A DNA stretch of 64,000 bases from Sphingobacteriia bacterium (GTDB lineage Bacteria > Bacteroidota > Bacteroidia > Chitinophagales > Chitinophagaceae), in the NCBI GenBank assembly GCA_031429515.1, contig JANOZT010000013.1, forward strand, positions 121 to 64,120, given 5' to 3'. Numbering within the stretch: position 1 is the first letter of the stretch; the number at the start of each line of letters is the position of its first letter. The position numbers were made by a program, and so were the translations under genes. This document shows, piece by piece, positions 2,295 to 28,595 of the stretch. Below the pieces are notes generated by a model. It made no database searches. It worked only from the letters and a program-made list of their open reading frames with translations, and was not told where the DNA came from.

Positions 2295-3785
2295 ATGGCT
2301 AAAAATATTGCAATCATAGGAGCAGGGCCGGCAGGATTAACGGCTGCTTATTTACTCGGTAAAGCAAATCAACAAGTAACTGTTTTTGAAAAAGATCCTA
2401 CCTATGTGGGCGGAATTTCCAGAACTGAATCATACAAAGGGTATCATTTTGATATTGGAGGACATCGTTTCTTTTCTAAATCGAAAGAAGTAGAAGATTT
2501 TTGGACAGAAATTTTAGGCGATGAAATGTTGGAACGTCCTAGAAGTTCTCGAATCTATTACAATAAAAAATTCTTTTCTTATCCGCTCGTTGCATTTGAA
2601 GCATTGAACAAGCTAGGGATTATCGAAAGTGGTTTATGTGTGTTGAGTTATCTCAAGGCAAAAGCTTTTCCTGTAAAAAATCCCACCAATTTTCAGGATT
2701 GGGTTGTCAATCAATTTGGTCAACGGTTATTCAATATATTTTTCAAAACCTATACAGAGAAAGTATGGGGAATTCCCTGCAATGAAATATCTGCTGATTG
2801 GGCAGCACAAAGAATCAAAGGGCTTTCATTGAGCAGTGCCATTTGGAATGCGCTATTCAAACCAAAACCATCTGCTAATAAAGATCAAGTTATTAAAACT
2901 TTGATCGATTCTTTCCGCTATCCAAAATTAGGCCCAGGCATGATGTGGGAGCGTTGCACCGAAAAGTGCAGAGCAATGGGGGTGGAAGTGTTGATGAATA
3001 CTGGTGTAAAAGATATTGCCATGGCCGATGGAAAATGGACAGTGCATACTTCTGATGGGGTTAATAATTCTGATGGTAAAGCCTATGGCAATTTTGATTA
3101 TGTATTGTCTTCCGCACCTATGCGCGAATTGATTCAAGCAGTGAGTCCGAAATTTCCATCCAATGCATTTTCTTCTGCAGCTAATTTAGGATATCGCGAT
3201 TTTTTAACAGTAGTACTCATCTGTAAAGATGAAGATGCATTCAGTGATAACTGGATTTATATTCACGACCCTAGTGTAAAAGTTGGGCGTATACAAAATT
3301 TTAAATCATGGAGTCCATACATGGTGCCCGATCCGAATATGGCTTGTTATGGGTTAGAATATTTTTGTTTTGAAGGTGATGGTTTATGGATCAGTTCCGA
3401 TGAAACACTCATCAATCTGGCAAAAAAAGAAATTGAACAAATTGGTTTAACCAAGGACAACGCAGTGGTAGATGGATATGTTGTACGTCAACCAAAAGCT
3501 TATCCAGTGTATGATCATTCATATAAAGAGAATGTAGAAAATGTACGTGAAGCGTTGAAAGCCTATCCAGGCCTATATTTGGTAGGACGCAATGGAATGC
3601 ATAAATACAATAACCAAGATCATAGCATGATGACTGCAATACTCGCTGCAAAAAATATTATTGCAGGTAATGAATTGTACGATCTATGGGATGTGAATGA
3701 AGATGCAGAATACCATGAAGGTGGAGATCGAGGTGCTGATGTGGAAAAAGTTGCGGAGAGATTAATACCTCAGCGGACGAATTAA
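2295..3785 (+). CDS. FAD-dependent oxidoreductase (protoporphyrinogen oxidase/UDP-galactopyranose mutase-like family)
   Basis: GAGPAG Rossmann motif, [26 protein letters not shown]. Confidence 0.8.
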
Positions 3786-3792
3786 GAAAGAT

Positions 3793-3844
3793 GAAATATG
3801 AAAGCAGGAAGTAAAAATTTCTTCTTTCATATTTCTGCTTTCAT
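3793..3844. terminator. Probable bidirectional terminator between convergent genes
   Basis: 12-bp inverted repeat GAAATATGAAAG (3793-3804)/CTTTCATATTTC (3824-3835). Confidence 0.55.
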
Positions 3845-3846
3845 AA

Positions 3847-5100
3847 TTAATAATTGTATTTCCCTTTCCACCGCTCTCTCAAAAATTTCTTGAATTCATT
3901 TTCACGAGCATTGTTGCCTGGCACATAGAAAGCTGTATTTTTTATTGCATCGGGTAAATATTCCTGTTCAATAAAATTACCTTCCCCTAAATGTGAGTAT
4001 TGATAGTCTTTACCATAATCCATCTGCTTCATCATTTTAGTGGGTGCATTGCGCAAATGCAAGGGCACTGATAAATCTCCATGTTGACTAACTGCTTTTT
4101 GTGCTTTTGCAATGGCTTCATAAGCAGCATTGCTTTTAGAGGATGATGCTAAATAAGTAGCACATTGAGATAAAATAATTCTGCTCTCTGGATAGCCGAT
4201 TTTACTTACTGCATCAAAAGTAGCGTTCGCTAGCAAAAGCGCATTGGGATTGGCATTGCCGATATCTTCACTGGCAAAAATGAGCATTCTTCTGGCAATG
4301 AATTTTACATCTTCACCACCTTCAATCATTCTTGCCAACCAATATACTGCACCATTCGGATCGCTTCCCCGCATACTTTTGATGAATGCAGAAATGATAT
4401 CATAATGTTGTTCGCCGCTTTTGTCGTACAAAGCAATTTTTTGTTGAGCCACTTGCATAACTAGTGCATCAGTAATTTCTTGTTTGCCAGATTGAACCAC
4501 CAAATCCAATAAGTTTAATAATTTTCTGCCATCTCCACCACTGATATTAATGAGAGCTTCTGTTTCTTTGAGCTGAATATTTTTCTCTTTTAGTACAAGA
4601 TCTTTTGATAATGCATCTTGCAGCATTTGTACCAACTGCTCTTTTTCCAATGATTTCAACACATAGACTTGACACCTACTGAGCAAGGCACTGTTCACTT
4701 CAAATGAAGGATTCTCTGTAGTTGCTCCAATCAATCGAATGATTCCTTTTTCTACTGCACCCAATAATGCATCTTGTTGCGATTTATTAAAACGATGTAT
4801 CTCATCAATAAATAAAACCGCCCCTTTTAGTGAAGTAGATTGCTCTATAACATCTCTCAATTCCTTTACACCACTGCTTATGGCGCTTAATTGAAAATAA
4901 GGCACTTGCAGTGTTTGCGTAATTATATTGGCCAAAGTGGTTTTACCAACTCCAGGAGGCCCCCACAAAATCATGGAAGGAATGGTTTTGTTTTCGATGC
5001 TTTTCCTAAGTATACTACCCACACCTGTAATATGTTCTTGCCCAACAATTTCATCCAATGTATTGGGGCGCATTCTTTCGGCTAAGGGAATTGAACTCAT
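3847..5100 (-). CDS. rarA: Replication-associated recombination protein A (AAA+ ATPase)
   Basis: PLAERMRP, Walker A GPPGVGKT, Walker B FIDEIHRF, ATTENPSF, SAFIKSMRGSDP. Confidence 0.95.
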   Translation of the reverse strand: MSSIPLAERMRPNTLDEIVGQEHITGVGSILRKSIENKTIPSMILWGPPGVGKTTLANIITQTLQVPYFQLSAISSGVKELRDVIEQSTSLKGAVLFIDEIHRFNKSQQDALLGAVEKGIIRLIGATTENPSFEVNSALLSRCQVYVLKSLEKEQLVQMLQDALSKDLVLKEKNIQLKETEALINISGGDGRKLLNLLDLVVQSGKQEITDALVMQVAQQKIALYDKSGEQHYDIISAFIKSMRGSDPNGAVYWLARMIEGGEDVKFIARRMLIFASEDIGNANPNALLLANATFDAVSKIGYPESRIILSQCATYLASSSKSNAAYEAIAKAQKAVSQHGDLSVPLHLRNAPTKMMKQMDYGKDYQYSHLGEGNFIEQEYLPDAIKNTAFYVPGNNARENEFKKFLRERWKGKYNY

Positions 5101-12085: not shown

Positions 12086-14278
12086 TTATCTTAGGAACAA
12101 CATCTCTCTGTATTTTGGCAAAGTCCATGTTTCGTCGTCCACCAATTGTTCTAATTTATCTACATGGTAACGGATTTCGTCGAAGAAAGCAGATTTAACT
12201 TGACTTTCATAAGCAATGGCTTTTGTGCGAGTGTTTTCGATATTGTTCACAATTTTTCTTGCTTCAACCATACCATGAACTTTGGTATGAATTACTTGAA
12301 TATGCTCACTTACTTCTTTTAGAATGGATAATTGACTTGCATATGAAGACTCAGGTAATCCAGCAGATTTTAACCCATTAACGTTGGTCAATAAATCATT
12401 CTGGTATTTAATTGCAGAAGGCAATATATGGTTGATAGCTAAATCGCCCATAATTCTTGCTTCAATTTGCACCTTCTTGATGTATTTCTCTAATTCAATT
12501 TCATGACGAGCTTCTAGTTCAGTATGAGAATACACATTATTGGTTTCAAATAAATGCTTTGCTTTATCTGTAACCATTGCATCTAAAGCAACTGGAGTAG
12601 TTTTTAAATTAGGTAAACCTCTGCGTTCTGCTTCATGATGCCACTCATCGCTGTAACCATCTCCTTCGAATAATACTTTTTTACTTTCTACAATGTATTT
12701 CTGAATTACATGCATAATAGCAATTTCTTTTTTATCACCTTTTTCAATCAATGTATCTACATCTAGTTTGAATTTTCTCAAAGTATCTGCAACAATCGTA
12801 TTTAATACGGTCATAGAGATGGCGCAGTTTGCTGAAGAACCTACTGCACGGAATTCAAATTTATTTCCAGTAAAAGCAAAAGGAGATGTTCTGTTACGAT
12901 CTGTATTGTCTAGCATCAATTCAGGAATACTACGATGTAAATCTAATTTTAAGATAGCTTCGTCTTGTTCATCAAATTTATGTCCCACTCTTGTTTCAAC
13001 ATCAGCTAATACCTTGGCTAAATATTGACCCACAAAAACTGAAATGATTGCAGGAGGAGCTTCATTGGCACCTAAACGATGATCGTTAGGAGCAGATGCA
13101 ATTGCTGCACGTAAAATATCGGCATAATCATGAACTGCTTTAATAGTGTTCACAAAGAAAGTAAGGAACATCAAATTGGTCTTTGGCGTTTTTCCTGGTG
13201 CTAATAAATTCACACCTGTATCAGTTGCCATACTCCAGTTATTATGCTTACCACTTCCATTAATACCAGCAAATGGTTTTTCATGTAATAATACAACGAG
13301 CTTATGTCTTTTAGCAACTCGACTCATAACATCCATCAAAAGGGTATTATGGTCTACAGCAATATTTACTTCTTCAAAAATCGGAGCACACTCAAATTGA
13401 GCAGGAGCAACTTCATTGTGGCGGGTTCTTAAAGGAATGCCTAATTTATATGCTTCGGCTTCGTAGTCGCGCATAAAAGCATACACTCTTTCAGGAATAG
13501 ATCCAAAATAATGATCTTCTAACTGTTGACCTTTCGCTGGAGCAGCACCAAATACGGTTCTTCCACTTTGCACTAAATCGGGGCGAGCGTTTGCCAAAGC
13601 TTCGTCAATTACAAAGTATTCTTGTTCCCAGCCCAAAGTAGCAGTTACTTTAGTAACATTCTTATCGAAATAATTGCATACTTCAACAGCAGATTTATTC
13701 AAAGACTCTAAAGCTTTTAATAAAGGAGCTTTGTAATCTAAAGATTCACCTGTATAAGAAACGAAAATAGTTGGAATACACAATGTTCTTCCATCACCCG
13801 TTTCAATGATAAAAGCAGGAGAAGAAGGATCCCATGCAGTATAACCACGAGCTTCGAAAGTAGCTCTTAATCCACCACTCGGAAATGAAGATGCATCAGG
13901 TTCTTGTTGAATTAATGCAGCACCGTCAAATTCTTCGATTGCAGTTCCATCACTTTTTAAAGTGAAAAACGAATCATGCTTTTCTGCTGTGGTTCCTGTT
14001 AACGGCTGAAACCAGTGTGTATAGTGAGTAACGCCTTTGCTCTCTGCCCATGCCCTAATACCATTGGCAATCTGACTTGCTACATTTCTATCAATTTTTT
14101 TCCCACCACGAATGCTGGTAGTTAAACTTTTATAAGCTTCATCACTTAAAAATTCACGTGCGGTTTTAAGCGTAAACACACTTTCTCCGAAAATTCCTGT
14201 AATTTTTGTACTAGGTTTTGAGGCAATCCCTTCATTTTCTTTGGAGATGTTGCTAATTGCATTAAATCTTAAAGACAT
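12086..14278 (-). CDS. glnN: Glutamine synthetase type III
   Basis: THWFQPLTG.TAEKHDSF, EPDASSFPSGGLR.TFEARGY, HEKPFAGINGSGKHNNWS, DRNRTSPFAFTGNKFEFRA; 730 aa. Confidence 0.95.
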   Translation of the reverse strand: MSLRFNAISNISKENEGIASKPSTKITGIFGESVFTLKTAREFLSDEAYKSLTTSIRGGKKIDRNVASQIANGIRAWAESKGVTHYTHWFQPLTGTTAEKHDSFFTLKSDGTAIEEFDGAALIQQEPDASSFPSGGLRATFEARGYTAWDPSSPAFIIETGDGRTLCIPTIFVSYTGESLDYKAPLLKALESLNKSAVEVCNYFDKNVTKVTATLGWEQEYFVIDEALANARPDLVQSGRTVFGAAPAKGQQLEDHYFGSIPERVYAFMRDYEAEAYKLGIPLRTRHNEVAPAQFECAPIFEEVNIAVDHNTLLMDVMSRVAKRHKLVVLLHEKPFAGINGSGKHNNWSMATDTGVNLLAPGKTPKTNLMFLTFFVNTIKAVHDYADILRAAIASAPNDHRLGANEAPPAIISVFVGQYLAKVLADVETRVGHKFDEQDEAILKLDLHRSIPELMLDNTDRNRTSPFAFTGNKFEFRAVGSSANCAISMTVLNTIVADTLRKFKLDVDTLIEKGDKKEIAIMHVIQKYIVESKKVLFEGDGYSDEWHHEAERRGLPNLKTTPVALDAMVTDKAKHLFETNNVYSHTELEARHEIELEKYIKKVQIEARIMGDLAINHILPSAIKYQNDLLTNVNGLKSAGLPESSYASQLSILKEVSEHIQVIHTKVHGMVEARKIVNNIENTRTKAIAYESQVKSAFFDEIRYHVDKLEQLVDDETWTLPKYREMLFLR

Positions 14279-14494: not shown

Positions 14495-17400
14495 TTAATC
14501 TTTACCCATTACCAATCTGGTAGCTTTGTATTTTACATTGCTTCCATCAAGACTAATGATATACACTTTTTGACCTTTGTTGATGTTCACATTAACTGGT
14601 ACAGCGTTTTCTCCTTTTGTAGCATTTACTGATTGACTCATTATTACATTACCAGTTCCAGCTTCTGTAACTTTTAAAGTAAGCGAGTAATCTTTATCTG
14701 CTTTAAACTTAAGGTTAAATGTTCCTTTAGAAGGATTAGGATATGCAGTAATATCTTTTGCAGATAAACTTCTGATATAGCCTATATCTTCTTTTGTAAA
14801 TGAAACATTGCTTAATGAAACTTCAACATTGGTATTTTTTCCAGCTGAAGTAGCTCCTAATGCAACAATCAAGGTAGTGATGTCTTTAGGATCGATTGAT
14901 TTATTAGAACCAGCAGATTTAAAGTCGCTTAATGGGATCAAGAAATCTGTCGCATCTTTATTTACAGCGAACTGATAAGTGTATTGATCAGCCCAATTTG
15001 TAATTGATTGTTTTACCAATGTTACTGTTAAAACCGAATTTCCAGCTGCAGTGATTTTCAGTGTTTTGAATGCACTTAGATCCTGTGCTGCACCACCACC
15101 TCTAAGTAATTTATATACTCCAATAAAGTCGGGAGTAGTTGCACTTACATCTACATTTCTGAAAAGATGGAATTCATCTTTAACTAATTGTGCAGTGCTA
15201 TTCTTTACATCAAATTTCTTAACACTTGTTGTATTGGTATTATAATCAACACCCCAAGATCCATCAGCCATAAATACTTCATCTTGCACAACTCCATTCA
15301 TATATAATTTAATGGTTGATTCATACAAGTCTCCAGTTTGAAGAGATATAGTTGTTTTACCATTGGCATTTACTGTGAAAGGAACCGTTCTTTTTGTATA
15401 AACAGTAGTGTTTTCAGTTGCTCTATCTGCCACTTCAAAATAACCACTTGTTCCTGCAGTTAAGTTATTAATGGTCATGCTAAGATTGTCTTCTACACGT
15501 TTACCTTCAGTAATATAAGTTTTTGGTAAACCAGCATTGCTCTTGATTTCATTAACTGGTAATCCAGCAGTTAAACGAGTGATGATATCAGCAGCCATAT
15601 CTGTTGCAAGAACAGGAGAACCACCCCAAAGTTGAATATTGTACATTGTTTCATCAACAGTATAATCTTTATTCAACCAATTGGATTGTATGGTATAACT
15701 ATTTCTTCCAGATTTTGCACCTATGATAAAGCTCATTGCATATTCAATATTACCATCGTTGTTTCTTAAGTTATATTGAACCATATTGATACCTTTTACG
15801 GTAACGTTTTGCATTGCTACTAATTCATATCCTTTCAAACGATCACAAATTGCTTTGGTATGATCGTACACTTCACCTTGAGTTTGAGTGCCAAATGCAA
15901 CCGCTTTAGGAGTATTTTCATTAACGAAGTCAATCGATAATACATCTTTAGCGTTGGTAATTCCAATCAGGTCTTTAGGTGTAGAAACAAAAGATTTAAA
16001 ATTGTAATTGACCAATTGACGAGGAAGAATATCAGACAATTTCAACTGAGATCCAGTTGCATTACTAACGATATTTCCTTTTCTTTCAGCGGATGGCATT
16101 TTACTATAATCAGCTGTTGCTGGAGTACTGTTAATGGCTTTATTGTAAACCCGAAGCGCAATTGCATCGCCTAAGCTTTTACTTTCAACTCCACCGCCAC
16201 CGCCACCACCAACTGAACCTGCAGTTGCAAATCCAAAATCGTAGCTATGGTTATTGGCACCGGAAACACCTGTAGTCATCATTATTGCAGAACGTTTATC
16301 TGTGCCTGCTAAACTCCATGCACTTCCGTCATTGTCTCTTTCATCTGCATTAGGATCTACTCCACCATTATTAGTCAGTGTAATATCATATCCACTCAAT
16401 GGAGCTTGTAATGGTGGTGCTCCTCCATCAAGACCATATATAGAAATAGTAAAGTCTGTATTAGGAGTAAGTTGTGTTAAACCATATTTCTCCGAAGCTG
16501 TTGAAGGTCTAGTAACACTTGGGTCTGAAGAAAATATATAATTTCCGTTTGCATCCGTTACGGCTGAAGCAATTAATGTATAAGCCGAACCTGGTCCAAC
16601 ATATTTAAGTAATTCAACAGTTACTCCTGCTATTCCATTTTCATCCGCATCTTGCACACCATTAGCATTCGCATCAAACCAAACACGGTTTCCAATTTCA
16701 ATTGGAGCTGGTGCAGAAATAATTTCTAAATCTCCTAAACCATTGGCTTTACCAAAAAATTCTACACTTCCACCTTCGTATAAAACTTTACCTGCTTTAG
16801 CAATACCATCTTGAGTAGAATAATATCGAACACCACCAGTATACCAGTTGGTAATAGGGTCAAAAGCAGTTGCAACTAATTCTTTACCTGGAAACATTGC
16901 AATACTACCAGTGCTGGTTTCTTCATGAGAAACACCACCATTAGTACCGTTAGCTGTATTGCCAATTCCCAAAGCACCACCTTGACCATTTTCATAACGA
17001 TCTGTGAAGAAAAACTCTCCACCGCCAGGGCCTTCATTGTTGCCAGCACCATTGGTAGTTATACTTCCACTCGTGCCATTACTTTCTAAAGTGAAGCTGG
17101 TATATGTTCCATTATTTGCAGCTTTTAAAATATCTCCAGCAGCATTTGATGTATACAAAGTGTTATTACCCATGCTTGTTGGAGCTAAATTCTGATTTCC
17201 GGATTGATGCCCAGATCTATCAGTAATGCCCAACATCATTGCACCATCAGCAGGATCAAATTCCAAAGAACTCAACATAGGTTGAGGATAAATAATTTTA
17301 TCTGATCCTGGAGGAATAACTGCTTCTGTAAAATTTCTAGCCCATGGATGCCATGAACCTTGGCACAATGTTGCTGCAGCTATTGTTCCATTTGGATCAA

Positions 17401-18706
17401 CGTAGTTAGAATTTTTATTTACTCCAAAACCAGTATTCATATTGGCTCTACGCTGATAGGTTAGTGGTGCATCTAATACGGTTGTAAACGTTTCTGTTCC
17501 GGGTGTAACGGTTGCACTCACTTTTAACACTACTGCTTTCAACTCAGATCTATTCACTGAAGAATTATCTGGTTTTACACCATCTAATACACCGCCTACA
17601 TAAATAGCACCTCTATAAAACTTAACTGCAAATGGTCTGAATGTGCTGTTACCAGCAGCTACAGGAAATGCATTATAAGCTACAATTTGAGAAGCTAAGG
17701 TTGGAGCAGTTCCATTAGTACCAATATCGACTCTCCATAATTTTTTATCATTTAAGTTGATGATGTATAAATATCTTCCATCATCAGAAATAGCCATTCC
17801 TCCCATGCCTTTTTTGCCTACTTCATCAAATACATTGCCACCAGTCATATCATCTCTATTGGCTTGGTTTCTAGCCTGATTACCAGGAGCAAAAGATCTG
17901 CCAGGCAAAGAGCCTGCGTCAAATGCTGGATTGATCGCATTTAAGTTAACAAAATTTCCAGTGTTGGTTTTAGTTGTTATTGCTTTTGCTCCAGTAGTAA
18001 CATAAATTCCATTCATGCCAAGAGGTCCAAGCGATACATGTCTTTTTACAAAAGCAGCATAAAATAATTTATCTGCTTTTCTACTATAAGCTGTGGCCCA
18101 AACTGAACCAGTTTGTCCCATATCGCTAATCACATTGGCAGCTGCGCCACTTCCATAATTAAAAGCATAAGTATTATCTGCACCAGATGCTGCTGGCCAT
18201 GCACCAGGAACTTGGTTATTACCGTTAGTATAGGATGGTACAACAATTCTTGCAGTTGCAGATTCAATATAATCACCAGGATAATTGATAGCAAAATTTG
18301 ACGTAATAGAAGGAGCTGTTACAAACTGAACACTTGTTTTATTATTTGTACCGTATGCTCCGGGATAATCTTCAGACATCCATCCGGTAAATTCTAAGCG
18401 TACTTTAGTTGCTGCAGAAATTTGACCTGAAGTAAAACTATAGTTGCCATTTGCACCAGATGTTGTAGTTGCTAATAAAGTGCCAGATGCATTATATGCA
18501 TTTACTGTAACTCCAGCAGCACCAGGTTCGTTGTAGCCAACGCCTGTTTCTTTAGTACCAGAAGCATTATAATCTCTAAAAACATTTCCACTGACTTGCG
18601 CGGAAAGTTCTGAAGAGCTAAAGGCAAAAACACATAAGGCAATAGCAATGCCTAATGATTTTTTTGCATTAATAATAATTGAGTAAATTTTTTTCATATA
18701 GTACAT
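14495..18706 (-). CDS. T9SS cargo: SdrD B-like domains + propeller-like region + shared C-terminal module + type A CTD
   Basis: Signal peptide ending AQ; [20 protein letters not shown] and [29 protein letters not shown] (SdrD_B-like); C-terminal AYPNPSKG...GEN CTD. Confidence 0.85.
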
Positions 18707-18874
18707 TTATGATTGAACCCTTGTATAAAATAGTACGGAACGTGTTTTTTTAACAATATTGTGTAAGTGAAAAAACAATTCTTGTAGTATATACTCTACA
18801 CACAACGTAAAAGTAACGAAATTTCTCGAAAAATACACTGTTTGCATATGCTAAAATCCTTACTGAGCAAGACG

Positions 18875-18894
18875 TATACCAACTAGTTTGTATA
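18875..18894. promoter_or_regulatory. 20-bp palindrome TATACCAACTAGTTTGTATA, candidate response-regulator operator
   Basis: 9 of 10 pairs complementary; close copy at 26249-26264. Confidence 0.6.
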
Positions 18895-18985
18895 TTTAGG
18901 TGTTAAATTTTAACCGATTTCAATTTTTTTAAAAGTTTTTTTTGAATATTTAATTTAAATTTACTTGCTGTACATTATAAAACAA

Positions 18986-19978
18986 ATGAATACACATTTT
19001 AATAAAAACAAATATGTCAAAGCGTCGAGTTTTCGATCATATGTAAATTTATTTACAAGTATCAATATTATTTTTCTGTGTTTTTTCATAATTCCCAACA
19101 ACTTGGTAGCACAATCTGCCATTAAGCCCTGCCAAAAGGAGCCAGATTTCATAAAATCTTTGGGATTTGATCCTTTGTGGACAGCATTAAGCACCAGTGA
19201 AAAAAAGCTCACTGGAATTGCTTTGATTGAATTTGAACAGATGGAAGGTCAAAAATCGCCTTCTCCAACAAATCCCAAAAAAACGGTGTATCAAGCTCCT
19301 TCATGGAAATCATTCGGCTATCTTTCCTCGATTGCTTTTGATATTAATGGCAATGCGTATACCATACCAACTCCTTTGATTTCCATGTTGTATAATCCTA
19401 TTGAAAAATTGAATACGATTTATCGATTGGATCAATACACCGGAGTATTGAATGAATGGTTGAATCTTCCGATTAATTCAAAAACAACCACTCGTAATCC
19501 TTTTGGATTATTGGGTATCACTTATGATTGTACTGCTAATATTTTGATTGCATCTACTGTAGCTGGCTCTGATCGATATCAAGAAAAAGGAATGATATTT
19601 TTGATCAATCCAAACACCCAAAAAATCATTGATACTTTAATGCATAAAGATGCAATAGGTCTCAATGTTGCTTTCGACGAAAATAAACAAAAACGATTGT
19701 ATATTGGAAGTGCAAGAAATGGAAATATCATTTCTATTCCAATCAATGCTCAAGGCCAATTAGTAAAGTCTAAATTGCGAAAAGAGCTTAGCTTGCAAGG
19801 GTTTGGGCCTAGAGGCGATGATAAAGCAAGAAAAATAAAAATGGTAGAGGGAGCGCTGATTATTAGTGGTGTTGCATTTAATTATAACTTACAAGCTTCT
19901 AGTGAAAAACCAGAAACAGTATACACTTTTAAGTGGAATACTTCTGCCAAAAACTGGGACTTGATTGACTATAAATAA
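18986..19978 (+). CDS. Secreted hypothetical protein, probable beta-propeller
   Basis: Hydrophobic leader ending LVAQ; repeated strand motifs (SIAFDINGNAYT, GITYDCTANILIAS, GLNVAFDEN..RLYIGS); start 18986 (ATG) or 18965 (TTG). Confidence 0.65.
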   Translation: MNTHFNKNKYVKASSFRSYVNLFTSINIIFLCFFIIPNNLVAQSAIKPCQKEPDFIKSLGFDPLWTALSTSEKKLTGIALIEFEQMEGQKSPSPTNPKKTVYQAPSWKSFGYLSSIAFDINGNAYTIPTPLISMLYNPIEKLNTIYRLDQYTGVLNEWLNLPINSKTTTRNPFGLLGITYDCTANILIASTVAGSDRYQEKGMIFLINPNTQKIIDTLMHKDAIGLNVAFDENKQKRLYIGSARNGNIISIPINAQGQLVKSKLRKELSLQGFGPRGDDKARKIKMVEGALIISGVAFNYNLQASSEKPETVYTFKWNTSAKNWDLIDYK

Positions 19979-19982
19979 GGCT

Positions 19983-21041
19983 ATGAAAAAGCAATGGAGC
20001 ATATTATTTTTTTTGGTGCTAATTATTTTTTCTTCCCTCTTTATTGACCAATTATTTTCTACTCCTATTCATTCTTCCAGTAATTCAAAAATCATTTTAG
20101 GCAGGTATTTATTCTTTGATAATCAATTGTCTTACAATCAAACAAAGTCTTGTGCTTCTTGTCATGATCCACAATTTGCATTTTCAGATGGGTATAGAAA
20201 ATCAGTTGGAGCAGATGGAGAAAATCTTACAAGAAATGCCCCTTCACTTTTAAATACTAAATACTTAAAAGCACTCACATGGGGGGATAGTTCTATTCAT
20301 GAATTTTATCAACAAATGAATTTTCCATTATTTAATGAACACCCAAAAGAATTGGGATGGACCAATAATGAATCGGAAATAATCAACCGTTTTAAATTAG
20401 ACCCTTTTTACCAAACCCTTTTCAGTAACGCATTTCCAAAGGAAAAAAATCCTTTTTCAACATTTTTTTTCCAAGAAGCCATTGCAGCTTTTGAAAATCA
20501 ATTACAATCTCAGAATAGTCCATATGATCAATATGTAAAAGGCAATAAAGATGCGATGAATGAAAAAGCAATCAATGGGTTAGCATTATTTAATTCCGCA
20601 AGTTTGGGATGTTTTAAATGCCATTCCTTGAATGTATCTCAACAACAATTATTGTATGCTAATACTGGTTTGTATAATCTAGATGAAGTTGGATCATACC
20701 CATCTTCAGACCAAGGGCTATATGAAATAACTAAAAACACCAACGACAAAGGCAAGTTTCGTGTGCCCTCATTGAGGAATATAATGCTAACAGCACCCTA
20801 CACACATGATGGTTCTGTTGAAACAATCCAACAAATGATTTATATTTATAAAAGAGGAGGTCGCTTAATTGAAGCGAAAGAAAACAAAGGGGATGGTCAT
20901 AACAATAAAAATAAATCTAGTTTAATAAAAGGCTTTACTTTATCAGATAAAGAGCAAACAGAATTAATTGAATTTCTTGCAGCTTTAACCGATACTAGCT
21001 ACTTAAGAAATAAGCAATTAATGAATCCTTTCAATAAATAA
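19983..21041 (+). CDS. Di-heme cytochrome c peroxidase-family enzyme, MbnH/MauG-like
   Basis: LGRYLFFD..LS, CASCH (20151-20165), CFKCH (20610-20624), NTGLYNLD..G.YP, GKFRVPSLRN..LTAPYTHDGS, GGR.I...GDG..N..KS..I.GF.L; N-terminal signal/anchor. Confidence 0.9.
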   Translation: MKKQWSILFFLVLIIFSSLFIDQLFSTPIHSSSNSKIILGRYLFFDNQLSYNQTKSCASCHDPQFAFSDGYRKSVGADGENLTRNAPSLLNTKYLKALTWGDSSIHEFYQQMNFPLFNEHPKELGWTNNESEIINRFKLDPFYQTLFSNAFPKEKNPFSTFFFQEAIAAFENQLQSQNSPYDQYVKGNKDAMNEKAINGLALFNSASLGCFKCHSLNVSQQQLLYANTGLYNLDEVGSYPSSDQGLYEITKNTNDKGKFRVPSLRNIMLTAPYTHDGSVETIQQMIYIYKRGGRLIEAKENKGDGHNNKNKSSLIKGFTLSDKEQTELIEFLAALTDTSYLRNKQLMNPFNK

Positions 21042-21043
21042 TA

Positions 21044-22831
21044 ATGATTGTACAAATAAAAAATTATTGGATAATAGTGCTTTTGTTAATGAGTTCAATC
21101 ATTGTATCTGCTCAACAAAAAAAATCTCTCCTAAAATCTACCAAAGCCAATGATGCGCTTTATTTGAGTGAGTTTAAAGAATCAGTTTTTGCAACAAAAA
21201 AAATAGACACCACTGCTTTTATTGTTGAACGAAAAAAACAAATCGACTCCATATTACATGATGAAATACCCGTGAAATACTATTCCGATAAAACCGATGA
21301 AAGAACTATGTTGGCGCAAAATATTGCTTTGCAAGACTCTTTTTTTATCAAATATATCTTTGATAAAAAAACGCATCAACCATTGTGGAATGAAATATTT
21401 GGTGTATATCCTGCAAGACCAGGGGATATTAGAAAAGGTGTTGTGAATTTGCCAGGTTCATTAATGCGTATTGAAATGTATAATTATGCGTTGAATTTAA
21501 CTACTATAGGTGTAGTCAATATCATAACACATAAAATGATCAGTGTAGATCACTATCCTCAAATGCAACCAGATATTCCTTCAAGGCTTACTAAATTGGC
21601 GGTAAAAATTGCGGTCAATTCACCTGAAGTGGAGAAAGCACTCGGATTTAAACCTTCTGCTGATTTGCCCATCATGTCGAGTACCAAAACAGCATTGAAT
21701 AGAACAAAATGCGAAAGGTCTCAGCATTTATGTGTTGCACCAACTTTTGTAAAAGGCAATAGAGCTTTATGGGCCATTGTGGACCTTACAGATAATCGAT
21801 TGGTAGGATTACGTTGGACCAATGTTGGGAAAGATGCTGAAAATTTAGTAGTTACAGAAAGAAAATTACAGAATGAAAATATGGCCGATTGTTATTGCGA
21901 AAAAATCAACACGGTTAAAAAAAATAACTGGGCAGTTGATTATGTTTTAACAGCCTCCGATGGACTCATGATTAGTAATGTAAGTTTCAATTCAAACAAA
22001 ATAATCAATAGTGCAAAATTGGTAGATTGGCATGTAAGTTACTCTGGTACTGATGGTTTCGGTTACAGTGATGCTGTAGGTTGCCCAATCTTTAGCCAAT
22101 CGGCTGTAGTGGCAACAGATCCGCCTATTATAGCAGACATAATTGAAGGGGATAGTACAGTTGGTTTTATGCTCGAACAGCGATTCTTCAGCGAATTATG
22201 GCCTATTGCTTGTAATTATAGTTATTCCCAGCGTTTTTTCTTTTACAAAAATGGTCAATTCAGAATGGTTTGTGCAAGTTTAGGAAGGGGTTGTGGAAAT
22301 AATGGAATTTACCGACCTGTGATGCGTATTTCATTTGCAGGTAATAAACAATCGTTTTATGAGTGGGGTAATAATGCTTGGAATATTTGGGACAAAGAAA
22401 AATGGCAATTACAACAACCAACAACATCTTATTCACCCAAGGGATTTCAGTATCAACTCCAAACGAGCAACAACAATGGGTTTTATATAGAGCCAGGCAA
22501 GGGTCAATTTAATGACAGTGGAAGAGGAGATAATGCCTACTTATACATTACTAAAAACCATTTAGATAAAAATGAAGGAGAAACCGATTTGGTAACAATT
22601 GGACCATGTTGCAATATCGATTACCGACAAGGCCCCGAAAAGTTCATTGAACCAAATCCAGAGCAAATTGTTAACACTGACTTAGTGCTCTGGTATGTTC
22701 CTCAAATGAAGAATGACGATACTCCAGGATCCAAATATTGTTGGGCTGAAACCTATTATGAGGGTGGTGTATATAAAATTAAATCTTACCCTTGTTTTGC
22801 AGGACCAATGTTTGTTCCTTTCAAAAAATGA
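21044..22831 (+). CDS. Secreted copper amine oxidase-fold protein lacking the canonical Cu-binding histidines
   Basis: Ordered CAO-like blocks: AIVDLTDNRLV, NWAVDY...GLMISNVSF...WHVSY..GYSD, CNYSYSQRFFFYKNGQF, YLYITKN, EQIVNTDLVLWY; recognised by eye against remembered E. coli TynA sequence. Confidence 0.75.
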   Translation: MIVQIKNYWIIVLLLMSSIIVSAQQKKSLLKSTKANDALYLSEFKESVFATKKIDTTAFIVERKKQIDSILHDEIPVKYYSDKTDERTMLAQNIALQDSFFIKYIFDKKTHQPLWNEIFGVYPARPGDIRKGVVNLPGSLMRIEMYNYALNLTTIGVVNIITHKMISVDHYPQMQPDIPSRLTKLAVKIAVNSPEVEKALGFKPSADLPIMSSTKTALNRTKCERSQHLCVAPTFVKGNRALWAIVDLTDNRLVGLRWTNVGKDAENLVVTERKLQNENMADCYCEKINTVKKNNWAVDYVLTASDGLMISNVSFNSNKIINSAKLVDWHVSYSGTDGFGYSDAVGCPIFSQSAVVATDPPIIADIIEGDSTVGFMLEQRFFSELWPIACNYSYSQRFFFYKNGQFRMVCASLGRGCGNNGIYRPVMRISFAGNKQSFYEWGNNAWNIWDKEKWQLQQPTTSYSPKGFQYQLQTSNNNGFYIEPGKGQFNDSGRGDNAYLYITKNHLDKNEGETDLVTIGPCCNIDYRQGPEKFIEPNPEQIVNTDLVLWYVPQMKNDDTPGSKYCWAETYYEGGVYKIKSYPCFAGPMFVPFKK

Positions 22832-22850
22832 CGTATATTGAATTTTATTT

Positions 22851-23489
22851 ATGAGCGAAAAAATTAACTTAATGATTGCCGATGACCATCCACTTTTTGT
22901 GGAAGGTCTAAAGATGATATTGGGGAGTGATCCAGCAATCAATATTGCAGGTATTGCAAATGACGGCAAGCAGTTGCTGTACTTACTCACTCAGCAACCA
23001 GATATTGATTTAATTTTATTGGATGTGAATATGCCTAACCTAAATGGCTTAGATACAATCAAATACATCAAACAATCTTTCGTTACTGTTAGGGTTTTAA
23101 TGCTTTCTGCATACAATGACGCAAAATTAATTGAGCAAGCAAAAAAAGCTGGCGCAGATGGATACATATTAAAGAACAGTAGCAAAGACGAACTATCGGG
23201 TGCCATTAAAAAAGTTGCCGGAGGTGAGTCTGTTTTCATTTTGGGAAAAGAAGAGAACTTGCCAGATGCTTTCAAAAAATTAGATACCTTTTTACACAAA
23301 TTCAATCTCACTAAGAGGGAATTAGAAATTGTTTATTACCTAAAGCAAACTTACACCAATCAGCAAATAGCAGAAAAATTGCATTTGAGTATTTATACGG
23401 TTGAAACACATCGTAAAAATATCATGCATAAATTACAATTAAATTCCCCAGCGGCTTTGGTTAAATTCATGATTGAATTTAACGTATAA
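22851..23489 (+). CDS. NarL/FixJ (LuxR-type HTH) two-component response regulator
   Basis: IADDH, LLDVNMP, MLS, GYILK receiver motifs; LTKRELEI...TNQQIAEKLHLSIYTVETHRKNIMHKL HTH. Confidence 0.95.
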   Translation: MSEKINLMIADDHPLFVEGLKMILGSDPAINIAGIANDGKQLLYLLTQQPDIDLILLDVNMPNLNGLDTIKYIKQSFVTVRVLMLSAYNDAKLIEQAKKAGADGYILKNSSKDELSGAIKKVAGGESVFILGKEENLPDAFKKLDTFLHKFNLTKRELEIVYYLKQTYTNQQIAEKLHLSIYTVETHRKNIMHKLQLNSPAALVKFMIEFNV

Positions 23490-23536
23490 AAAAAGCCCCC
23501 ATTGCTGGAAGCTATTTCTATTGAAGTCCTAAAAAT

Positions 23537-26029
23537 TTATTGTTGTATCAATATTTTCTGTGGTTGAAGTTTGATGCCATTTCCCTCAATGGTTAGTATG
23601 CTAATAGATATACCAGGTAAATTGGTCATCTGAACTGGAACCTGATTTTCTCCTTTCACTACATTGGCGTCTCTGGTAAATAATACTCTTCCGCTTGATG
23701 CATCAGTAATCTTAATAGTGGCAGTAGTATTTACTTCACTATTAAATTTCGCTGTGAATTTTCCTCCCTTTGCAGGATTAGGAAATACATTGATAAATGT
23801 ATTTGTAGCTGCAGCAACTTCATATGGCGCTTTTTTAGAAAAAGCAATATTGTTGATGGCCGCATCAATTGTTGTTGATCTTCCATCAAAAGTTTCGAAA
23901 GCAAATACAACAGTAACTATATCATTGGCTTCAAATCCGGCTGTTGAATTCGTTGCTTTGAAACTACTCAAATCTATTCTGTATTCTTTAAATTCTTTTC
24001 CAATAGTAGTGCTGTATTTAAATTGTTTTTCAAAATCGTTGATGGAATTTTTTGCCAAAGTAATTTTTAGTTTTGCATCTCCTTTAGCGGTTAATACCAA
24101 TGTTTTATATTCACTCAGATCTACTGCAACACCTGCTCCTTTTAATACTTTGTAAGCGGTAATATAATTAGGAGTTGTTGCCTTTATTTTTACATTTCTG
24201 AATACAGGATAGTCTCCTGCAGCAATTCCTTTTGAAGTATCGTTCAATATGCTAAACTCCTTTAATACAGTTTTGGAAGAGTCATAATCAATTCCCCAAG
24301 TGCCATCACTCATATAAACTTGATCCTGTAATTTGCCATTGATATACATAGATACATTGCTCTCAAAAACATCACTCATTGGGAAAGTAACGGTTGATTT
24401 GTTGAATGCATTTAAATTAAATGGAATAGTTCTTTTTGTTTTTATTGTTGCCATTTCGTTGGCTTTCTCTTCCACTTCAAAATATCCACTACTAAAGATG
24501 CTTTGATTATTGATGGATAAATTTAAATTGGTTCCATTACGACTTCCGCTTGTGAAATAAGTTTTAGGTAGTTCTGCGGAAGCAATAAATTGCTGAATAG
24601 GCATTATAGCATTCAATTTGCTCAAAATTTCTAAAGCCATATCTATGCATAAATACGGAGCTGCACCCCAAACCTGGTAGTTGATTAATGTGTCTTCACT
24701 GATATAATCTTTATTCAACCAATTAGATTGAAAAGAGAAACTATTCCTTCCTATTTTTTTACCTACTGAAAAGCTCATTGCATATTCAATATTTCCAGTA
24801 GACTGTTGTAAAGTGTACCTGATAAAATTTAAACTGTTTAAAGAAAAATTCTCCACATTCAATAATTCAGCACCTTTCAATCGATCACACATAGGTTTTG
24901 TATGATCATACATTACACCTTGTGTTTTTGTTGCAAAAGCTACTGCTTTGCAAATTCCATCTTTTGTAAAGTCTACAGATCTTACTTCTTTTGCGTTTGT
25001 AATAAAAGGAATATCTGTAGGTGTAGTTATATAAGCTGTGTATCCAGAATCTAATATGCGTGAAGGCATTAAGTCGGCCAATCTCAAGCCAGTATTAGAA
25101 GAAGTTGCATTGCTAGTGATCATTCTAGACTCAGGTTGGAGTAATTGCATTTGTTGATAATTCACTTCACCGTTACTTCCTTCTAGTAATTTTCCATAAA
25201 TTCTTTTAGCAATTTTATCTCCTAAGCTTTTGCTTTCTAATCCACCCGTATTTCCTGAAAATGAAATTTTTCCATCTATTGTTAAATCAGGAATACTATC
25301 CATTTTGTTGACGCATTCGATCGGTGTAACTGTTGTAAAAAATATCAAATCATTGAAGTCGTTATCACAGCCATTGTTATCTCTTCTAATATCTTCAAAA
25401 CCAATAACAATTCTATTGGAACTAGAATCTCTGAGTAAAACAGTATGTCTTTTATTTGAAACAATAGGTTCAGGATTAAAAGCTGCGGTAGAATACAATG
25501 TCCAGTTTCCAGGAGTTACAATAGTTCCATTCCATCCGTCAGCCATCAATACAAATCCAATACCTGTTTTTGCAGGAAAATTGCCTAAGAATACTTTATC
25601 ACCTGCATTTAATGCACCACCTGCACCATTTTTAGATGCATTGGGAAAAATTATTTTGATTTGATTTGCTGCAGGAGTAGAAGTAGGTGGATTGTCTGTA
25701 TTGAAAGTATAATAACCTAGGGCATTTCTATAACCAGCGCCTTCATCAACAAAAGTAATCCAAATATCTGAAGCACATTTAACATCAATGGTTTCGGTTC
25801 TTCCATCTGCAATTAAACGAGGGTTATAGGTTGGAACTGGTCTGTTCTCTGGCAAAGAAGCGGCAATCTTACTTAGGAATGATGCACTAAGCACATCTCT
25901 AGTTGGCAATAAATAATTTGGTTTCCCTTGATTATCATAAGTGCCTAAATATTGGTATTGGCCAATTGATTTTGTGGAAACTAGAATAAGTATGGTCAGT
26001 CCTAGATAATGCGTAAATTTCTTAAGCAT
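23537..26029 (-). CDS. T9SS cargo: DUF4114-like N-terminal domain + shared C-terminal module + type A CTD
   Basis: Signal peptide ending IGQ; TFVDEGAGYRNALGYY and GFEDIRRD...DNDFNDLIF; C-terminal NVFPNPAKG...GEN CTD; C-terminal ~570 aa colinear with 14495-18706 product. Confidence 0.85.
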   Translation of the reverse strand: MLKKFTHYLGLTILILVSTKSIGQYQYLGTYDNQGKPNYLLPTRDVLSASFLSKIAASLPENRPVPTYNPRLIADGRTETIDVKCASDIWITFVDEGAGYRNALGYYTFNTDNPPTSTPAANQIKIIFPNASKNGAGGALNAGDKVFLGNFPAKTGIGFVLMADGWNGTIVTPGNWTLYSTAAFNPEPIVSNKRHTVLLRDSSSNRIVIGFEDIRRDNNGCDNDFNDLIFFTTVTPIECVNKMDSIPDLTIDGKISFSGNTGGLESKSLGDKIAKRIYGKLLEGSNGEVNYQQMQLLQPESRMITSNATSSNTGLRLADLMPSRILDSGYTAYITTPTDIPFITNAKEVRSVDFTKDGICKAVAFATKTQGVMYDHTKPMCDRLKGAELLNVENFSLNSLNFIRYTLQQSTGNIEYAMSFSVGKKIGRNSFSFQSNWLNKDYISEDTLINYQVWGAAPYLCIDMALEILSKLNAIMPIQQFIASAELPKTYFTSGSRNGTNLNLSINNQSIFSSGYFEVEEKANEMATIKTKRTIPFNLNAFNKSTVTFPMSDVFESNVSMYINGKLQDQVYMSDGTWGIDYDSSKTVLKEFSILNDTSKGIAAGDYPVFRNVKIKATTPNYITAYKVLKGAGVAVDLSEYKTLVLTAKGDAKLKITLAKNSINDFEKQFKYSTTIGKEFKEYRIDLSSFKATNSTAGFEANDIVTVVFAFETFDGRSTTIDAAINNIAFSKKAPYEVAAATNTFINVFPNPAKGGKFTAKFNSEVNTTATIKITDASSGRVLFTRDANVVKGENQVPVQMTNLPGISISILTIEGNGIKLQPQKILIQQ

Positions 26030-26390: not shown

Positions 26391-28595
26391 ATGGAAATTA
26401 CTGTAAAAACCGCTCAACAGCTCCGCCTTACTGCTGAAGAATTTGAGCTGATCCAACAAAAATTAAATAGAACACCCAATTTCACTGAGTTATGTGCTTT
26501 TAGCGGCATGTGGAGTGAACATTGTAGTTATAAAAACTCCATTAAATGGTTAAAAACATTGCCAAGAAATGGCGGTAGAATGTTGGTAGCTGCAGGAGAA
26601 GAAAATGCAGGTTTAATGGATATTGGAAATGGTTTTGGTGTAGTGTTTAAAATAGAAAGCCATAATCATCCTAGTGCAATAGAACCATTTCAAGGTGCTG
26701 CAACTGGTGTTGGCGGAATTCAAAGAGATATATTCACCATGGGAGCAAGGCCTATTGCTTCAATGAATAGTTTGCGCTTTGGAAATCTAAAAGATAAAAA
26801 AACGCAACACTTATTATCAGGTGTTGTAAAGGGTATTGGGCATTATGGAAATTGTTTTGGTGTTCCAACAGTTGGAGGTGAAGTTTATTTTGAAGATTGT
26901 TACCATACCAATCCTTTAGTGAATGCAATGAGTGTTGGGATAATGAAAGCTGGTGATATGGTAAGTGCAACAGCAAAAGGCACTGGCAATCCTGTAATTT
27001 ATGTTGGAAGTGCAACCGGAAAAGATGGAATTGGTGGAGCTAGTTTTGCGAGTGCAGATATTACTCATGATAGTGTTCAAGAATTGCCTGCAGTTCAAGT
27101 GGGCGATCCTTTTCAAGAGAAGAAATTATTAGAAGCTTGTTTAGAAGTATTAACAACAGGAGCTGTTGTAGGTATGCAGGATATGGGTGCGGCAGGAATT
27201 ATTTGCAGTACAGCAGAGATGAGTGCAAAAGGCGAAGTAGGAATGCATATCGATTTAGAGAAAGTACCTACTCGACAACAAAACATGAAAGCTTGGGAAT
27301 TACTTTTAAGTGAAAGTCAGGAAAGAATGTTGATGGTTGTAGAAAAAGGAAGAGAAGCAGAAGTAGTTGCTGTTTTTGAAAAATGGGATTTAAGTGCAAG
27401 CACAATTGGTCATGTTACCGACGACGGTTTGTTGAAATTTTACATGAATGGAGAACTAGAAGCATCATTACCTGCATACGAATTGGTATTAGGTGGAGGT
27501 GCTCCTCAATACACTAGAGAATACACGGAGCCTGCTTATTTCGAAAAAATCAATGCATTCAATATTGCAGATATAGAAGACATTGCTGATATAAAAGAAG
27601 TTGCTGAATCATTAGTGTCATTGCCCAATATCGCCAGTAAACGATGGATATATACGCAATATGATAGTATGGTTGGTGCTGCAAATTTGAGTACCAATAA
27701 TCCTAGCGATGCTTCTATTGTTTTAGCAAAAGGAACTGGTAAAGCCTTGGCAATGACCGTAGATTGCAATAGCAAATATGTTTATGCAAATCCTTATATC
27801 GGTGGAATGATTGCTGTTGCAGAAGCAGCAAGAAATATTGTTTGTAGTGGTGCTGAGCCAATCGGTGTGACCAATTGTTTGAATTTTGGAAACCCGTATG
27901 ACCCCGAAGTTTATTTTCAATTTGTACATGCCGTTACTGGTATGGGCGATGCTTGTAAAAAATTCAATACACCAGTAACTGGTGGTAATGTGAGTTTCTA
28001 TAATCAAAACCCTGATGGTCCGGTATATCCAACACCAACAATTGGAATGGTGGGTATCTTGGAAGATATCGAAGCAAAAATGACCTTGCATTTTAAAAAT
28101 GCAGGTGATACGATTGTATTAATTGGTCAGCAACACAATGATATTGCATCAAGTGAATATTTACATAAACTAAAGAAAGTTCAATATTCACCAGCGCCCT
28201 ATTTTAATTTGGATGAAGAATACAATATACAACAGTTTGTGTATGAGCTCATTCAAAAAAAGAAAATCAACAGCGCTCATGATATTAGCGAAGGGGGATT
28301 GATGATTACTTTATTTGAGAGTGGATTTGCTGGTAATAAGGGATTCAATGTAGATCCTTCAATAGAAATGAGAAAAGACGCTTATTGGTTTGGAGAAGCT
28401 CAAGGAAGAATTGTTGTTTCAGTTAATACCAATGCGTTGGACACTTTATTGAATGATGCAAAAGCTGCTGGAATTGCATGTTCAATAGTAGGAACAGTAA
28501 CAGAAAGTGATATTGAAGTGAGTGGAGAAAATTGGGGAGATATCAATGGTTGGAAAGAGAAATATGATACTGCTATAGAAAAGATGATTCAATAA
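26391..28595 (+). CDS. purL: Phosphoribosylformylglycinamidine synthase subunit PurL
   Basis: MWSEHCSYK, KIESHNHPSAIEPFQGAATGVGGIQRD, QDMGAAG, TGGNVSFYN. Confidence 0.97.
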   Translation: MEITVKTAQQLRLTAEEFELIQQKLNRTPNFTELCAFSGMWSEHCSYKNSIKWLKTLPRNGGRMLVAAGEENAGLMDIGNGFGVVFKIESHNHPSAIEPFQGAATGVGGIQRDIFTMGARPIASMNSLRFGNLKDKKTQHLLSGVVKGIGHYGNCFGVPTVGGEVYFEDCYHTNPLVNAMSVGIMKAGDMVSATAKGTGNPVIYVGSATGKDGIGGASFASADITHDSVQELPAVQVGDPFQEKKLLEACLEVLTTGAVVGMQDMGAAGIICSTAEMSAKGEVGMHIDLEKVPTRQQNMKAWELLLSESQERMLMVVEKGREAEVVAVFEKWDLSASTIGHVTDDGLLKFYMNGELEASLPAYELVLGGGAPQYTREYTEPAYFEKINAFNIADIEDIADIKEVAESLVSLPNIASKRWIYTQYDSMVGAANLSTNNPSDASIVLAKGTGKALAMTVDCNSKYVYANPYIGGMIAVAEAARNIVCSGAEPIGVTNCLNFGNPYDPEVYFQFVHAVTGMGDACKKFNTPVTGGNVSFYNQNPDGPVYPTPTIGMVGILEDIEAKMTLHFKNAGDTIVLIGQQHNDIASSEYLHKLKKVQYSPAPYFNLDEEYNIQQFVYELIQKKKINSAHDISEGGLMITLFESGFAGNKGFNVDPSIEMRKDAYWFGEAQGRIVVSVNTNALDTLLNDAKAAGIACSIVGTVTESDIEVSGENWGDINGWKEKYDTAIEKMIQ

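Follow-up and report, generated by a model that had tools for sequence, protein, structure and literature searches.

A copper amine oxidase-like protein without copper ligands, encoded beside an MbnH-type di-haem enzyme in Bacteroidota

Topaquinone (TPQ), the cofactor of copper amine oxidases (CAOs), is the textbook self-processing, copper-dependent cofactor: its biogenesis is autocatalytic and requires copper held by His ligands. MauG oxidizes pre-methylamine dehydrogenase, and MbnH oxidizes MbnP. A 2025 review of protein-derived cofactors gives TPQ formation as autocatalytic only, and describes MbnH and MauG as modifying partner proteins, with two protein substrates (PMC11951088). This work describes a gene in a stretch of 64,000 nucleotides from Sphingobacteriia bacterium (NCBI GenBank assembly GCA_031429515.1, contig JANOZT010000013.1, positions 121 to 64,120, forward strand), the whole of which is referred to as the window. 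Its product, a CAO-like protein of 595 amino acids (aa), combines a CAO fold and a retained cofactor Tyr with the loss of the copper His, and is encoded next to an MbnH-type di-haem enzyme. This core observation is confirmed; the interpretation that the neighbor matures a cofactor rests on a conserved three-gene operon and is plausible. Either the TPQ paradigm has an exception, or the CAO scaffold has been re-used for another role.

The closest described proteins are the CAOs themselves (TynA/ECAO of E. coli, AGAO of Arthrobacter and HPAO of Hansenula; PF01179, EC 1.4.3.21/22), which turn an amine and O2 into an aldehyde, NH3 and H2O2. They have the D2-D3-D4 fold in common with the CAO-like protein, which keeps the cofactor Tyr, the Tyr of the N-Y-x-Y motif and a Tyr369-like residue, together with the ‘WVT’, ‘NTD..VW’ and C-terminal strands. 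Unlike CAOs, it lacks the three copper His, has S393 instead of the Asp or Glu that follows the TPQ Tyr (Arg in most family members), and is shorter by ~38 residues between Y333 and Y392 and by ~35 residues before the HxH position. Its family has ten conserved Cys, its Pfam score is sub-threshold, and its gene is partnered with a di-haem enzyme gene instead of an aldehyde dehydrogenase or amine-catabolism genes.

Three further groups of systems are informative. In methylamine dehydrogenase (MADH), the enzyme with tryptophan tryptophylquinone, the heavy subunit is a propeller, and the MauG/pre-methylamine dehydrogenase system likewise has a Tyr-His-type di-haem gene beside a putative quinone carrier plus a β-propeller. 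The resemblance is by analogy only. The window di-haem enzyme is distant from MauG (1e-19), the candidate substrate is a 595-aa CAO-fold protein with a Tyr instead of a small Trp-Trp light subunit, and no relationship of the operon propeller to the MADH heavy subunit is detectable. For the MbnH/MbnP system with its kynurenine copper site (PDB 6E1C), the enzyme itself is a full-length homologue (5e-68, MbnH model passed), whereas the window system lacks an MbnP partner and any methanobactin or copper-transport context, its partners being a CAO-fold protein and a propeller. As a concept, amine-oxidizing quinone enzymes that need a dedicated partner are represented by LodA and GoxA, with the flavoproteins LodB and GoxB, and by quinohaemoprotein amine dehydrogenase. 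The quinoproteins with cysteine tryptophylquinone or lysine tyrosylquinone (LTQ) have folds unrelated to that of the CAO-like protein, and flavoproteins or radical SAM enzymes serve as their maturases; in lysyl oxidase, the LTQ arises by copper-dependent self-processing, unlike the cofactor proposed below. Plant clade I copper amine oxidases (CuAOs), such as the Brassicaceae CuAO-zeta clade, are also a CAO branch with a non-canonical active site, but they have lost the T/S-X-X-N-Y-D cofactor motif (PMC12058724), whereas in the present family the cofactor Tyr stays and the metal site is lost.

The gene and its export signal are located as follows.

21044..22831, + strand: CAO-like protein gene, open reading frame (ORF) of 595 aa; secreted, D2-D3-D4 CAO architecture without copper ligands
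21044..21112, + strand: probable Sec signal peptide, aa 1-23, ending ...VSA before QQ, by inspection of the sequence

The ORF is real, and the motifs quoted in an earlier note, made from the sequence alone, all occur at the residue numbers given there, as do its 12 Cys (223, 230, 283, 285, 347, 390, 410, 417, 522, 523, 566 and 584). By inspection only, the N-terminus resembles a Sec signal peptide (MIVQIKNYWIIVLLLMSSIIVSA, followed by QQ); in many homologues a lipobox-like Cys takes the place of the cleavage point in the alignment. At least 1635 homologues were found at E ≤ 1e-3, every one of them named ‘hypothetical’. They form 273 clusters at 50% identity, and relatives are present in 374 species-level genomes. 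The nearest genes (95% identity) belong to metagenome-assembled genomes of Sediminibacterium, the probable source genus of the window, and cultured carriers include Sediminibacterium salmoneum NBRC 103935, Sediminibacterium sp. C3 and Parasediminibacterium paludis CECT 8010. No Pfam or NCBIfam model exists for the family, and no description of it was found in the literature on MbnH or MauG with amine oxidase or topaquinone.

The likeness to CAOs, which had been proposed from a comparison by eye with TynA, was checked against CAO structures and profiles. An AlphaFold model was built from 28 homologues (mean predicted local distance difference test score (pLDDT) of 72; low-confidence segments 334-352, 488-495 and 515-536), and in a Foldseek search of the PDB all 50 listed matches were CAOs (E ~1e-17, probability 1.0, template modeling (TM) score 0.42). 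In addition, hhalign matched a family alignment, A2, of 43 members (25-55% identity) to a CAO profile of 13 sequences, namely E. coli TynA and twelve diverse plasmid-borne CAOs, with a probability of 98.9% in local and 99.6% in global mode. The E-values ranged from 4e-17 to 2e-23 over 497-529 columns, and the span, TynA residues 72-743, takes in the D2, D3 and D4 domains. Detection at this level needed both the diverse alignment and the 13-sequence profile: a shallow alignment (A1) against the single TynA sequence reached a probability of 1%, and A2 against the same sequence 83%. Based on the Foldseek and profile-profile matches, the protein is established as a remote homologue of CAOs. It falls outside Pfam PF01179 as defined (20.3 vs 27 bits, aa 289-337 only), the NCBIfam primary-amine oxidase model scores 19.8 bits, and no CAO was retrieved from the PDB by sequence searches (phmmer with the protein, hmmsearch with a 28-sequence profile).

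Conservation was counted in tabulated columns of 73 full-length family representatives of 25-50% identity, the basis of all fractions of 73 in the text. The residues and motifs that matter for the active site are the following.

22217..22219, + strand: Tyr392 codon, paired in a high-confidence hhalign block with Tyr466, from which TPQ is made in E. coli TynA
22040..22042, + strand: Tyr333 codon, aligned with ECAO Tyr369 (hydrogen-bond partner of TPQ O4) in a high-confidence hhalign block
22070..22084, + strand: D343-A-V-G-C347 motif, the loop best conserved in the family (D343 71/73, C347 73/73)
22304..22327, + strand: G421-I-Y423-R424-P-V-M-R428, in the place of the CAO HxH motif, without His; Y423, R424 and R428 near-invariant
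22712..22714, + strand: Asn557 codon, where ECAO has its third copper ligand, His689; aligned without gaps over the seven residues that follow W550
Near-invariant residues, of 73: C347 73; Y333, W296 and C285 72; Y392, D343, Y423 and R428 71
Near-invariant residues, of 73, continued: C390, C417, Y394, W386 and W550 each 70

The hhalign register agrees with high confidence with the pairing of CNY392SY with GNY(TPQ)DY that had been made by eye, and the same pairings were obtained for WHVSY333 with MIVPY369, YLYITKN with LWVTRY, and NTDLVLWYVPQMKN557 with NTDAVVWMTTGTTH689. Further high-confidence equivalences are N391 with Asn465, Y394 with Tyr468, and W550 with the Trp of ‘VVW’. In the consensus N-Y-(D/E)-Y, the D/E position is occupied by Arg in 45 of the 73 representatives. 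The Y392-containing tryptic peptide reads ...LWPIACNYSYSQR. Retained in 71-72 of 73 representatives at 25-50% identity, Y392 and its Tyr369-like partner Y333 are under strong selection.

The copper site shows the opposite. The window protein has seven His in total and none in residues 405-440 and 551-567, whatever the alignment, which bears out the lack of the three copper His stated in the earlier note; there are none in the matching segments of 22 inspected representatives, nor among the residues given for the tabulated columns of the 73 representatives at the copper-ligand positions. Only H330 (65/73) and H228 (62/73) are conserved, and the side chain of H330 should point away from Y333, as the two would alternate on one strand. 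That NNGIY (419-423) replaces the HQH motif holds insofar as there is no His, but the exact register is uncertain, since HxH falls in an hhalign gap; with R428 anchored on the Arg of the CAO ‘RLD’, G421 and Y423 come to stand at the two His positions. Similarly, the third ligand is never His at position 557, although the Asn that was said to replace it is found in only 37/73, with Thr in 24/73. The three-His copper site is therefore missing from the family as sampled, and copper-dependent self-processing as known for CAOs is precluded.

The second component of the locus lies immediately upstream.

19983..21041, + strand: di-haem enzyme of the MbnH family (a CCP_MauG protein), 352 aa when counted from the ATG, in an ORF that starts with TTG 19965
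20151-20165 and 20610-20624, + strand: its CXXCH motifs, CASCH (aa 63) and CFKCH (aa 216)
20847-20849, + strand: its Tyr295, aligned with MauG Tyr294

The proposed MauG/MbnH-like gene is indeed directly upstream, and its product scores 368.9 bits with the MbnH model TIGR04039 (cut-off 362.85). Among PDB entries it matches 6E1C (titled Di-heme enzyme), which we take to be MbnH of M. trichosporium, over its full length (5e-68, identity in the 45% range), peroxidases at 1e-29 to 1e-36 and MauG at 1e-19. Tyr295 pairs with chain residue 294 of MauG (3L4M-type chains), the Tyr axial haem ligand of that enzyme, and with a Tyr of 6E1C, whereas the peroxidase alignments end just before this region, where the Met ligand of the peroxidases lies. 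Of 68 orthologues linked to the cluster, 66 have the Tyr and all have the two CXXCH motifs. With the MbnH cut-off passed, the 6E1C match, Tyr295 and two CXXCH motifs, the neighbor is of the protein-oxidizing MauG/MbnH type and not a plain peroxidase.

The third component is a propeller gene, which directly precedes the di-haem gene.

18986..19978, + strand: secreted β-propeller protein ‘PROP’, 330 aa, third conserved gene of the operon

The trio makes up a tight operon in genomes of the Chitinophagaceae type. Linkage was scored in 80 species-representative loci, nine of which are cut by contig ends. All three genes are adjacent and on one strand in 67 of the 71 loci with room, in three gene orders: PROP, MbnH, CAO-like (42 loci); MbnH, CAO-like, PROP (24 loci); and CAO-like, PROP, MbnH (one locus). 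A 40%-identical family member, P0141, has the second order too. A linkage that survives permutation of the gene order argues for the trio being a functional unit. In the window, the stop codon of the di-haem gene is separated by 2 nt from the CAO-like start, and the propeller gene ends 4 nt before the di-haem ATG at 19983, or overlaps it if TTG 19965 is the start. Judged by this spacing, the propeller, di-haem, CAO-like and response-regulator genes look like one operon, in which the CAO-like gene is probably translationally coupled with the di-haem and propeller genes. A promoter and terminator consensus scan of 18600-23700 gave chance-level matches, such a scan being uninformative for Bacteroidota.

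Taken together, the CAO homology, the MbnH-type neighbor and the conserved linkage make enzyme-assisted modification a reasonable leading hypothesis. We tentatively favor the reading that the CAO-like protein is a copper-independent enzyme with a Tyr392-derived cofactor installed by the di-haem enzyme. The CAO-like protein is a secreted or periplasmic member of the CAO superfamily that has lost the copper site and kept Y333 and the buried Y392. With H2O2 or O2, the di-haem enzyme would pass into a high-valent state of the bis-Fe(IV) type, and would then oxidize a residue of its CAO-like partner through radical chemistry at long range. Y392 would be the most attractive target, because the TPQ pocket is kept, the self-processing copper is gone and MauG-type enzymes can perform multi-electron oxidation of buried aromatics; its conversion to a 3,4-dihydroxyphenylalanine- or TPQ-type quinone would replace the lost Cu(II)/O2 self-processing. 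The mature protein could then be a copper-independent quinoprotein that oxidizes a primary amine, possibly an amine or a lysine on a neighboring surface protein of the type IX secretion system (T9SS), with the propeller as a subunit or a substrate-presenting partner. The wider claim, that the family is the first copper-independent amine oxidase branch with a TPQ-like quinone installed by a MauG/MbnH-type enzyme, possibly acting on T9SS amines or lysines, is doubtful. If true, it would mean a new way of making a classical cofactor, a new class of extracellular quinoproteins in Bacteroidota, a third class of MbnH/MauG protein substrate, and a function for more than 1000 ‘hypothetical’ proteins of freshwater and soil Bacteroidota.

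Several points weigh against a Y392 cofactor made by the di-haem enzyme. We infer the occurrence of a modification, the residue modified and the function of the enzyme alike. When the conservation of the three residues singled out by the earlier note was examined, Y392 and D343 held but N391 did not, being kept in only 55/73. The equivalence of GY341SD343 with Y381LD383, the catalytic base, was not borne out: hhalign leaves ECAO D383 in a gap and sets D343 three residues before the Gly of the CAO ‘GCDC’, both at a posterior of 0.1-0.3. The Y-x-D register that pairs D343 with D383 and the register of hhalign seem equally possible on the alignments, so that D343 is at most a candidate for the catalytic base. 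The active-site loops are poorly modelled, with pLDDT <50 in 334-352, which contains D343, and in 515-536. No route for quinone re-oxidation without copper is evident. The propeller or the large surface protein described below, both overlooked in the earlier note, are each a possible substrate of the di-haem enzyme and could be the real one. The di-haem gene is missing from four loci that have room for it (L074, L086, L094 and L095); one of them, L094, also lacks the propeller, and the neighbors in all four are housekeeping genes.

What speaks most strongly against the haem enzyme being obligatory for Y392 maturation is a distant clade B (25-41% identity). Its members carry the motifs ‘WG..CNYRYEQ’ and ‘G[YF]xDxxGC’, keep the core residues (among them Y392, D343 and C347) and lack the His as well. 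There is no di-haem gene in the seven clade B contexts examined (P0237, P0170, P0184, P0201, P0178, P0210 and P0187), the last two of which are on short contigs, and the MbnH-linked clade has no aromatic residue of its own, only D328, P348, P361 and P387 being conserved exclusively in it. Dependence on the haem enzyme may therefore not be universal, and the leading hypothesis, plausible in view of the missing copper His, the MbnH neighbor and the 67/71 linkage, loses weight here; in clade B, the di-haem gene could be located elsewhere in the genome, or another enzyme could take its place.

The clade B contexts differ from each other. P0170 (L101, 6001-9324) is fused to a propeller of the GSDH family (PF07995), P0184 adjoins a GSDH gene (L102, 8558-9781), and P0201 is one of two tandem paralogues that are followed by a gene for a 233-aa protein and then a GSDH gene (L104, 5079-6410). 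These fusions and adjacencies hint that, within the family, the partnership with a propeller may be the older one. The gene after P0210 encodes a homologue of the small protein of P0201 (35% identity; weak Reeler-like match), P0178 lies after an AhpC/Redoxin gene, and nothing notable is near P0237 and P0187. Clade B members often carry C-terminal PKD or Ig domains. The tandem paralogues in L104 lie at 349-2139 and 2448-4235 and encode 596 and 595 aa. The small protein, membrane-anchored and of ~225 aa, follows the CAO-like gene at 4318-5019 in L104 and at 4143-4808 in L109, where its start overlaps the CAO-like stop codon.

Three other explanations of the locus have to be weighed. It is unlikely that the di-haem enzyme acts as MbnH does, converting a Trp or other residue of a partner into a metal ligand such as kynurenine, with the CAO-like protein, the propeller or the surface protein as that partner, copper binding or acquisition as the role and the CAO fold as a mere scaffold. 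The di-haem protein is far nearer to 6E1C than to MauG or the peroxidases and passes the MbnH model, and invariant Trp are found both in the CAO-like protein (W296, W386, W550 and W567) and in PROP (W80 and W297). The known reaction of MbnH is the conversion of Trp to kynurenine for copper binding (PMC11951088). However, among the four cluster proteins scanned with NCBIfam none matched the MbnP family (TIGR04052), there are no copper-handling genes near the operon, and no conserved His or Met is available to complete a copper site. Moreover, W296 and W550 are conserved in ordinary CAOs too and so look structural, and the invariance of the TPQ-pocket tyrosines would be left unexplained. As to the Trp cluster (441, 446, 449 and 454) that had been put forward as a cofactor source, all four residues are present, but the cluster is only partly conserved across the family (W449 21/73). 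The gene cluster contains neither a small Trp-pair cofactor subunit nor mau operon genes.

Equally improbable is a non-catalytic pseudo-enzyme that serves binding or structure in the cell envelope, in which the conserved Tyr, Asp and Cys would maintain folding or ligand binding and which would have the propeller and the surface protein as partners, perhaps for adhesion or for assembly at the cell surface. The copper ligands are gone in every sequence inspected, the ten Cys would form five disulfides as is typical of stable extracellular proteins, and the PKD and Ig fusions of clade B and the frequent T9SS SdrD_B surface-protein neighbor fit such a role. Nevertheless, the near-invariance of Y392, Y333, Y394, D343, Y423 and R428 at 25-50% identity goes beyond the usual upkeep of a fold, and the tight coupling to a protein-oxidizing haem enzyme is hard to explain. 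Plant CAO clades that are thought to be non-functional show the opposite pattern, losing the N-Y-D motif itself (PMC12058724).

It is quite improbable that the di-haem protein is a redox partner and not a maturase, accepting electrons from or removing H2O2 for a CAO-like enzyme whose cofactor, if any, is formed by another route or unneeded: the CCP_MauG family does contain true peroxidases, which the gene matches at 1e-29 to 1e-36, quinohaemoprotein amine dehydrogenase does combine a di-haem cytochrome subunit with a propeller subunit (PMC11951088), and clade B, near GSDH, AhpC/Redoxin and the weak Reeler-like protein, does lack the di-haem gene, but Tyr295 at the place of MauG Tyr294 and peroxidase alignments that stop short of it are typical of protein-oxidizing enzymes, and the identity to MbnH runs full length.

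The remaining proposal of the earlier note, a Cys-Tyr crosslink, depends on C390 and leads to the cysteines of the family.

22211..22294, + strand: TPQ-type β-hairpin C390-C417, probably stapled by a disulfide between the two Cys; cross-strand register deduced from hairpin geometry
22607..22612, + strand: vicinal Cys522-Cys523 in a ‘GPCCN’ motif

Pairing was deduced from the patterns of loss among the 73 representatives, and suggests that the ten conserved Cys form five disulfide pairs. Three sequences, two of them truncated or misaligned in this region, lack both C390 and C417. Because of this joint loss, and because the two face each other across the hairpin, C390 is most simply read as a structural staple with C417, and a Cys-Tyr crosslink via C390 was rejected as the leading idea, all ten Cys being pairable. 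C285 and C347 occur together in all representatives but one, whose N-terminus is truncated. Six representatives have other residues in place of both C522 and C523, five (several of them truncated or misaligned) have gaps at the two positions, and P0237 lacks C523 only, while C566 and C584 are mostly retained where C522/C523 are absent; this suggests a vicinal disulfide between C522 and C523, with C223/C230 and C566/C584 as the remaining pairs. Vicinal disulfides are a rare feature that is found in some quinoprotein dehydrogenases.

For PROP, the AlphaFold model has a pLDDT of 88.8, and Foldseek returned generic 6-7-bladed propellers only (YncE, PON1/Drp35 lactonases and glucose dehydrogenases; TM ~0.45-0.5). 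A relationship of PROP to the clade B GSDH propellers, which are like the pyrroloquinoline quinone-dependent sugar dehydrogenases, was considered and rejected as not detectable (hhalign probability ~1%). Two further genes adjoin the trio.

22851..23489, + strand: NarL/LuxR-type response regulator (Pfam Response_reg and GerE), 19 nt after the CAO-like stop codon
14495..18706, - strand: large surface protein of the T9SS (1403 aa; SdrD_B and Por_Secre_tail), transcribed divergently from the operon

A response regulator is found 4-22 bp downstream of the CAO-like gene in ~35 loci, all with the Sediminibacterium-type order, and may be co-transcribed with the operon. No histidine kinase was seen between 14000 and 30000, and the regulator is thus an orphan.

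The 1403-aa protein consists of an N-terminal module of ~830 aa with a propeller-blade-like stretch, SdrD_B, a C-terminal module of ~570 aa and Por_Secre_tail. In 31 of 40 well-flanked loci (26/27, 4/12 and 1/1 for the three gene orders), a homologue of the N-terminal module (E 1e-63 to 1e-105) is found no more than 1.5 kb from the trio, and for the second order there are two more within 5 kb; the position and strand of these homologues relative to the trio vary. A role of the surface protein as substrate or docking partner of the trio is suggestive only. Its C-terminal module (14495-16200, - strand), which has no family assignment, is shared with an 830-aa DUF4114 protein at 23537-26029 (- strand; 40% identity over 573 aa), and a copy of this module lies downstream of the operon in most Sediminibacterium-type loci. 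Farther out, the region is flanked by a housekeeping type III glutamine synthetase gene (12086-14278, - strand; GSIII_N and Gln-synt_C) and by a 734-aa ORF (26391-28595, + strand) that reads, from its sequence only, as a purL-like FGAM synthase.

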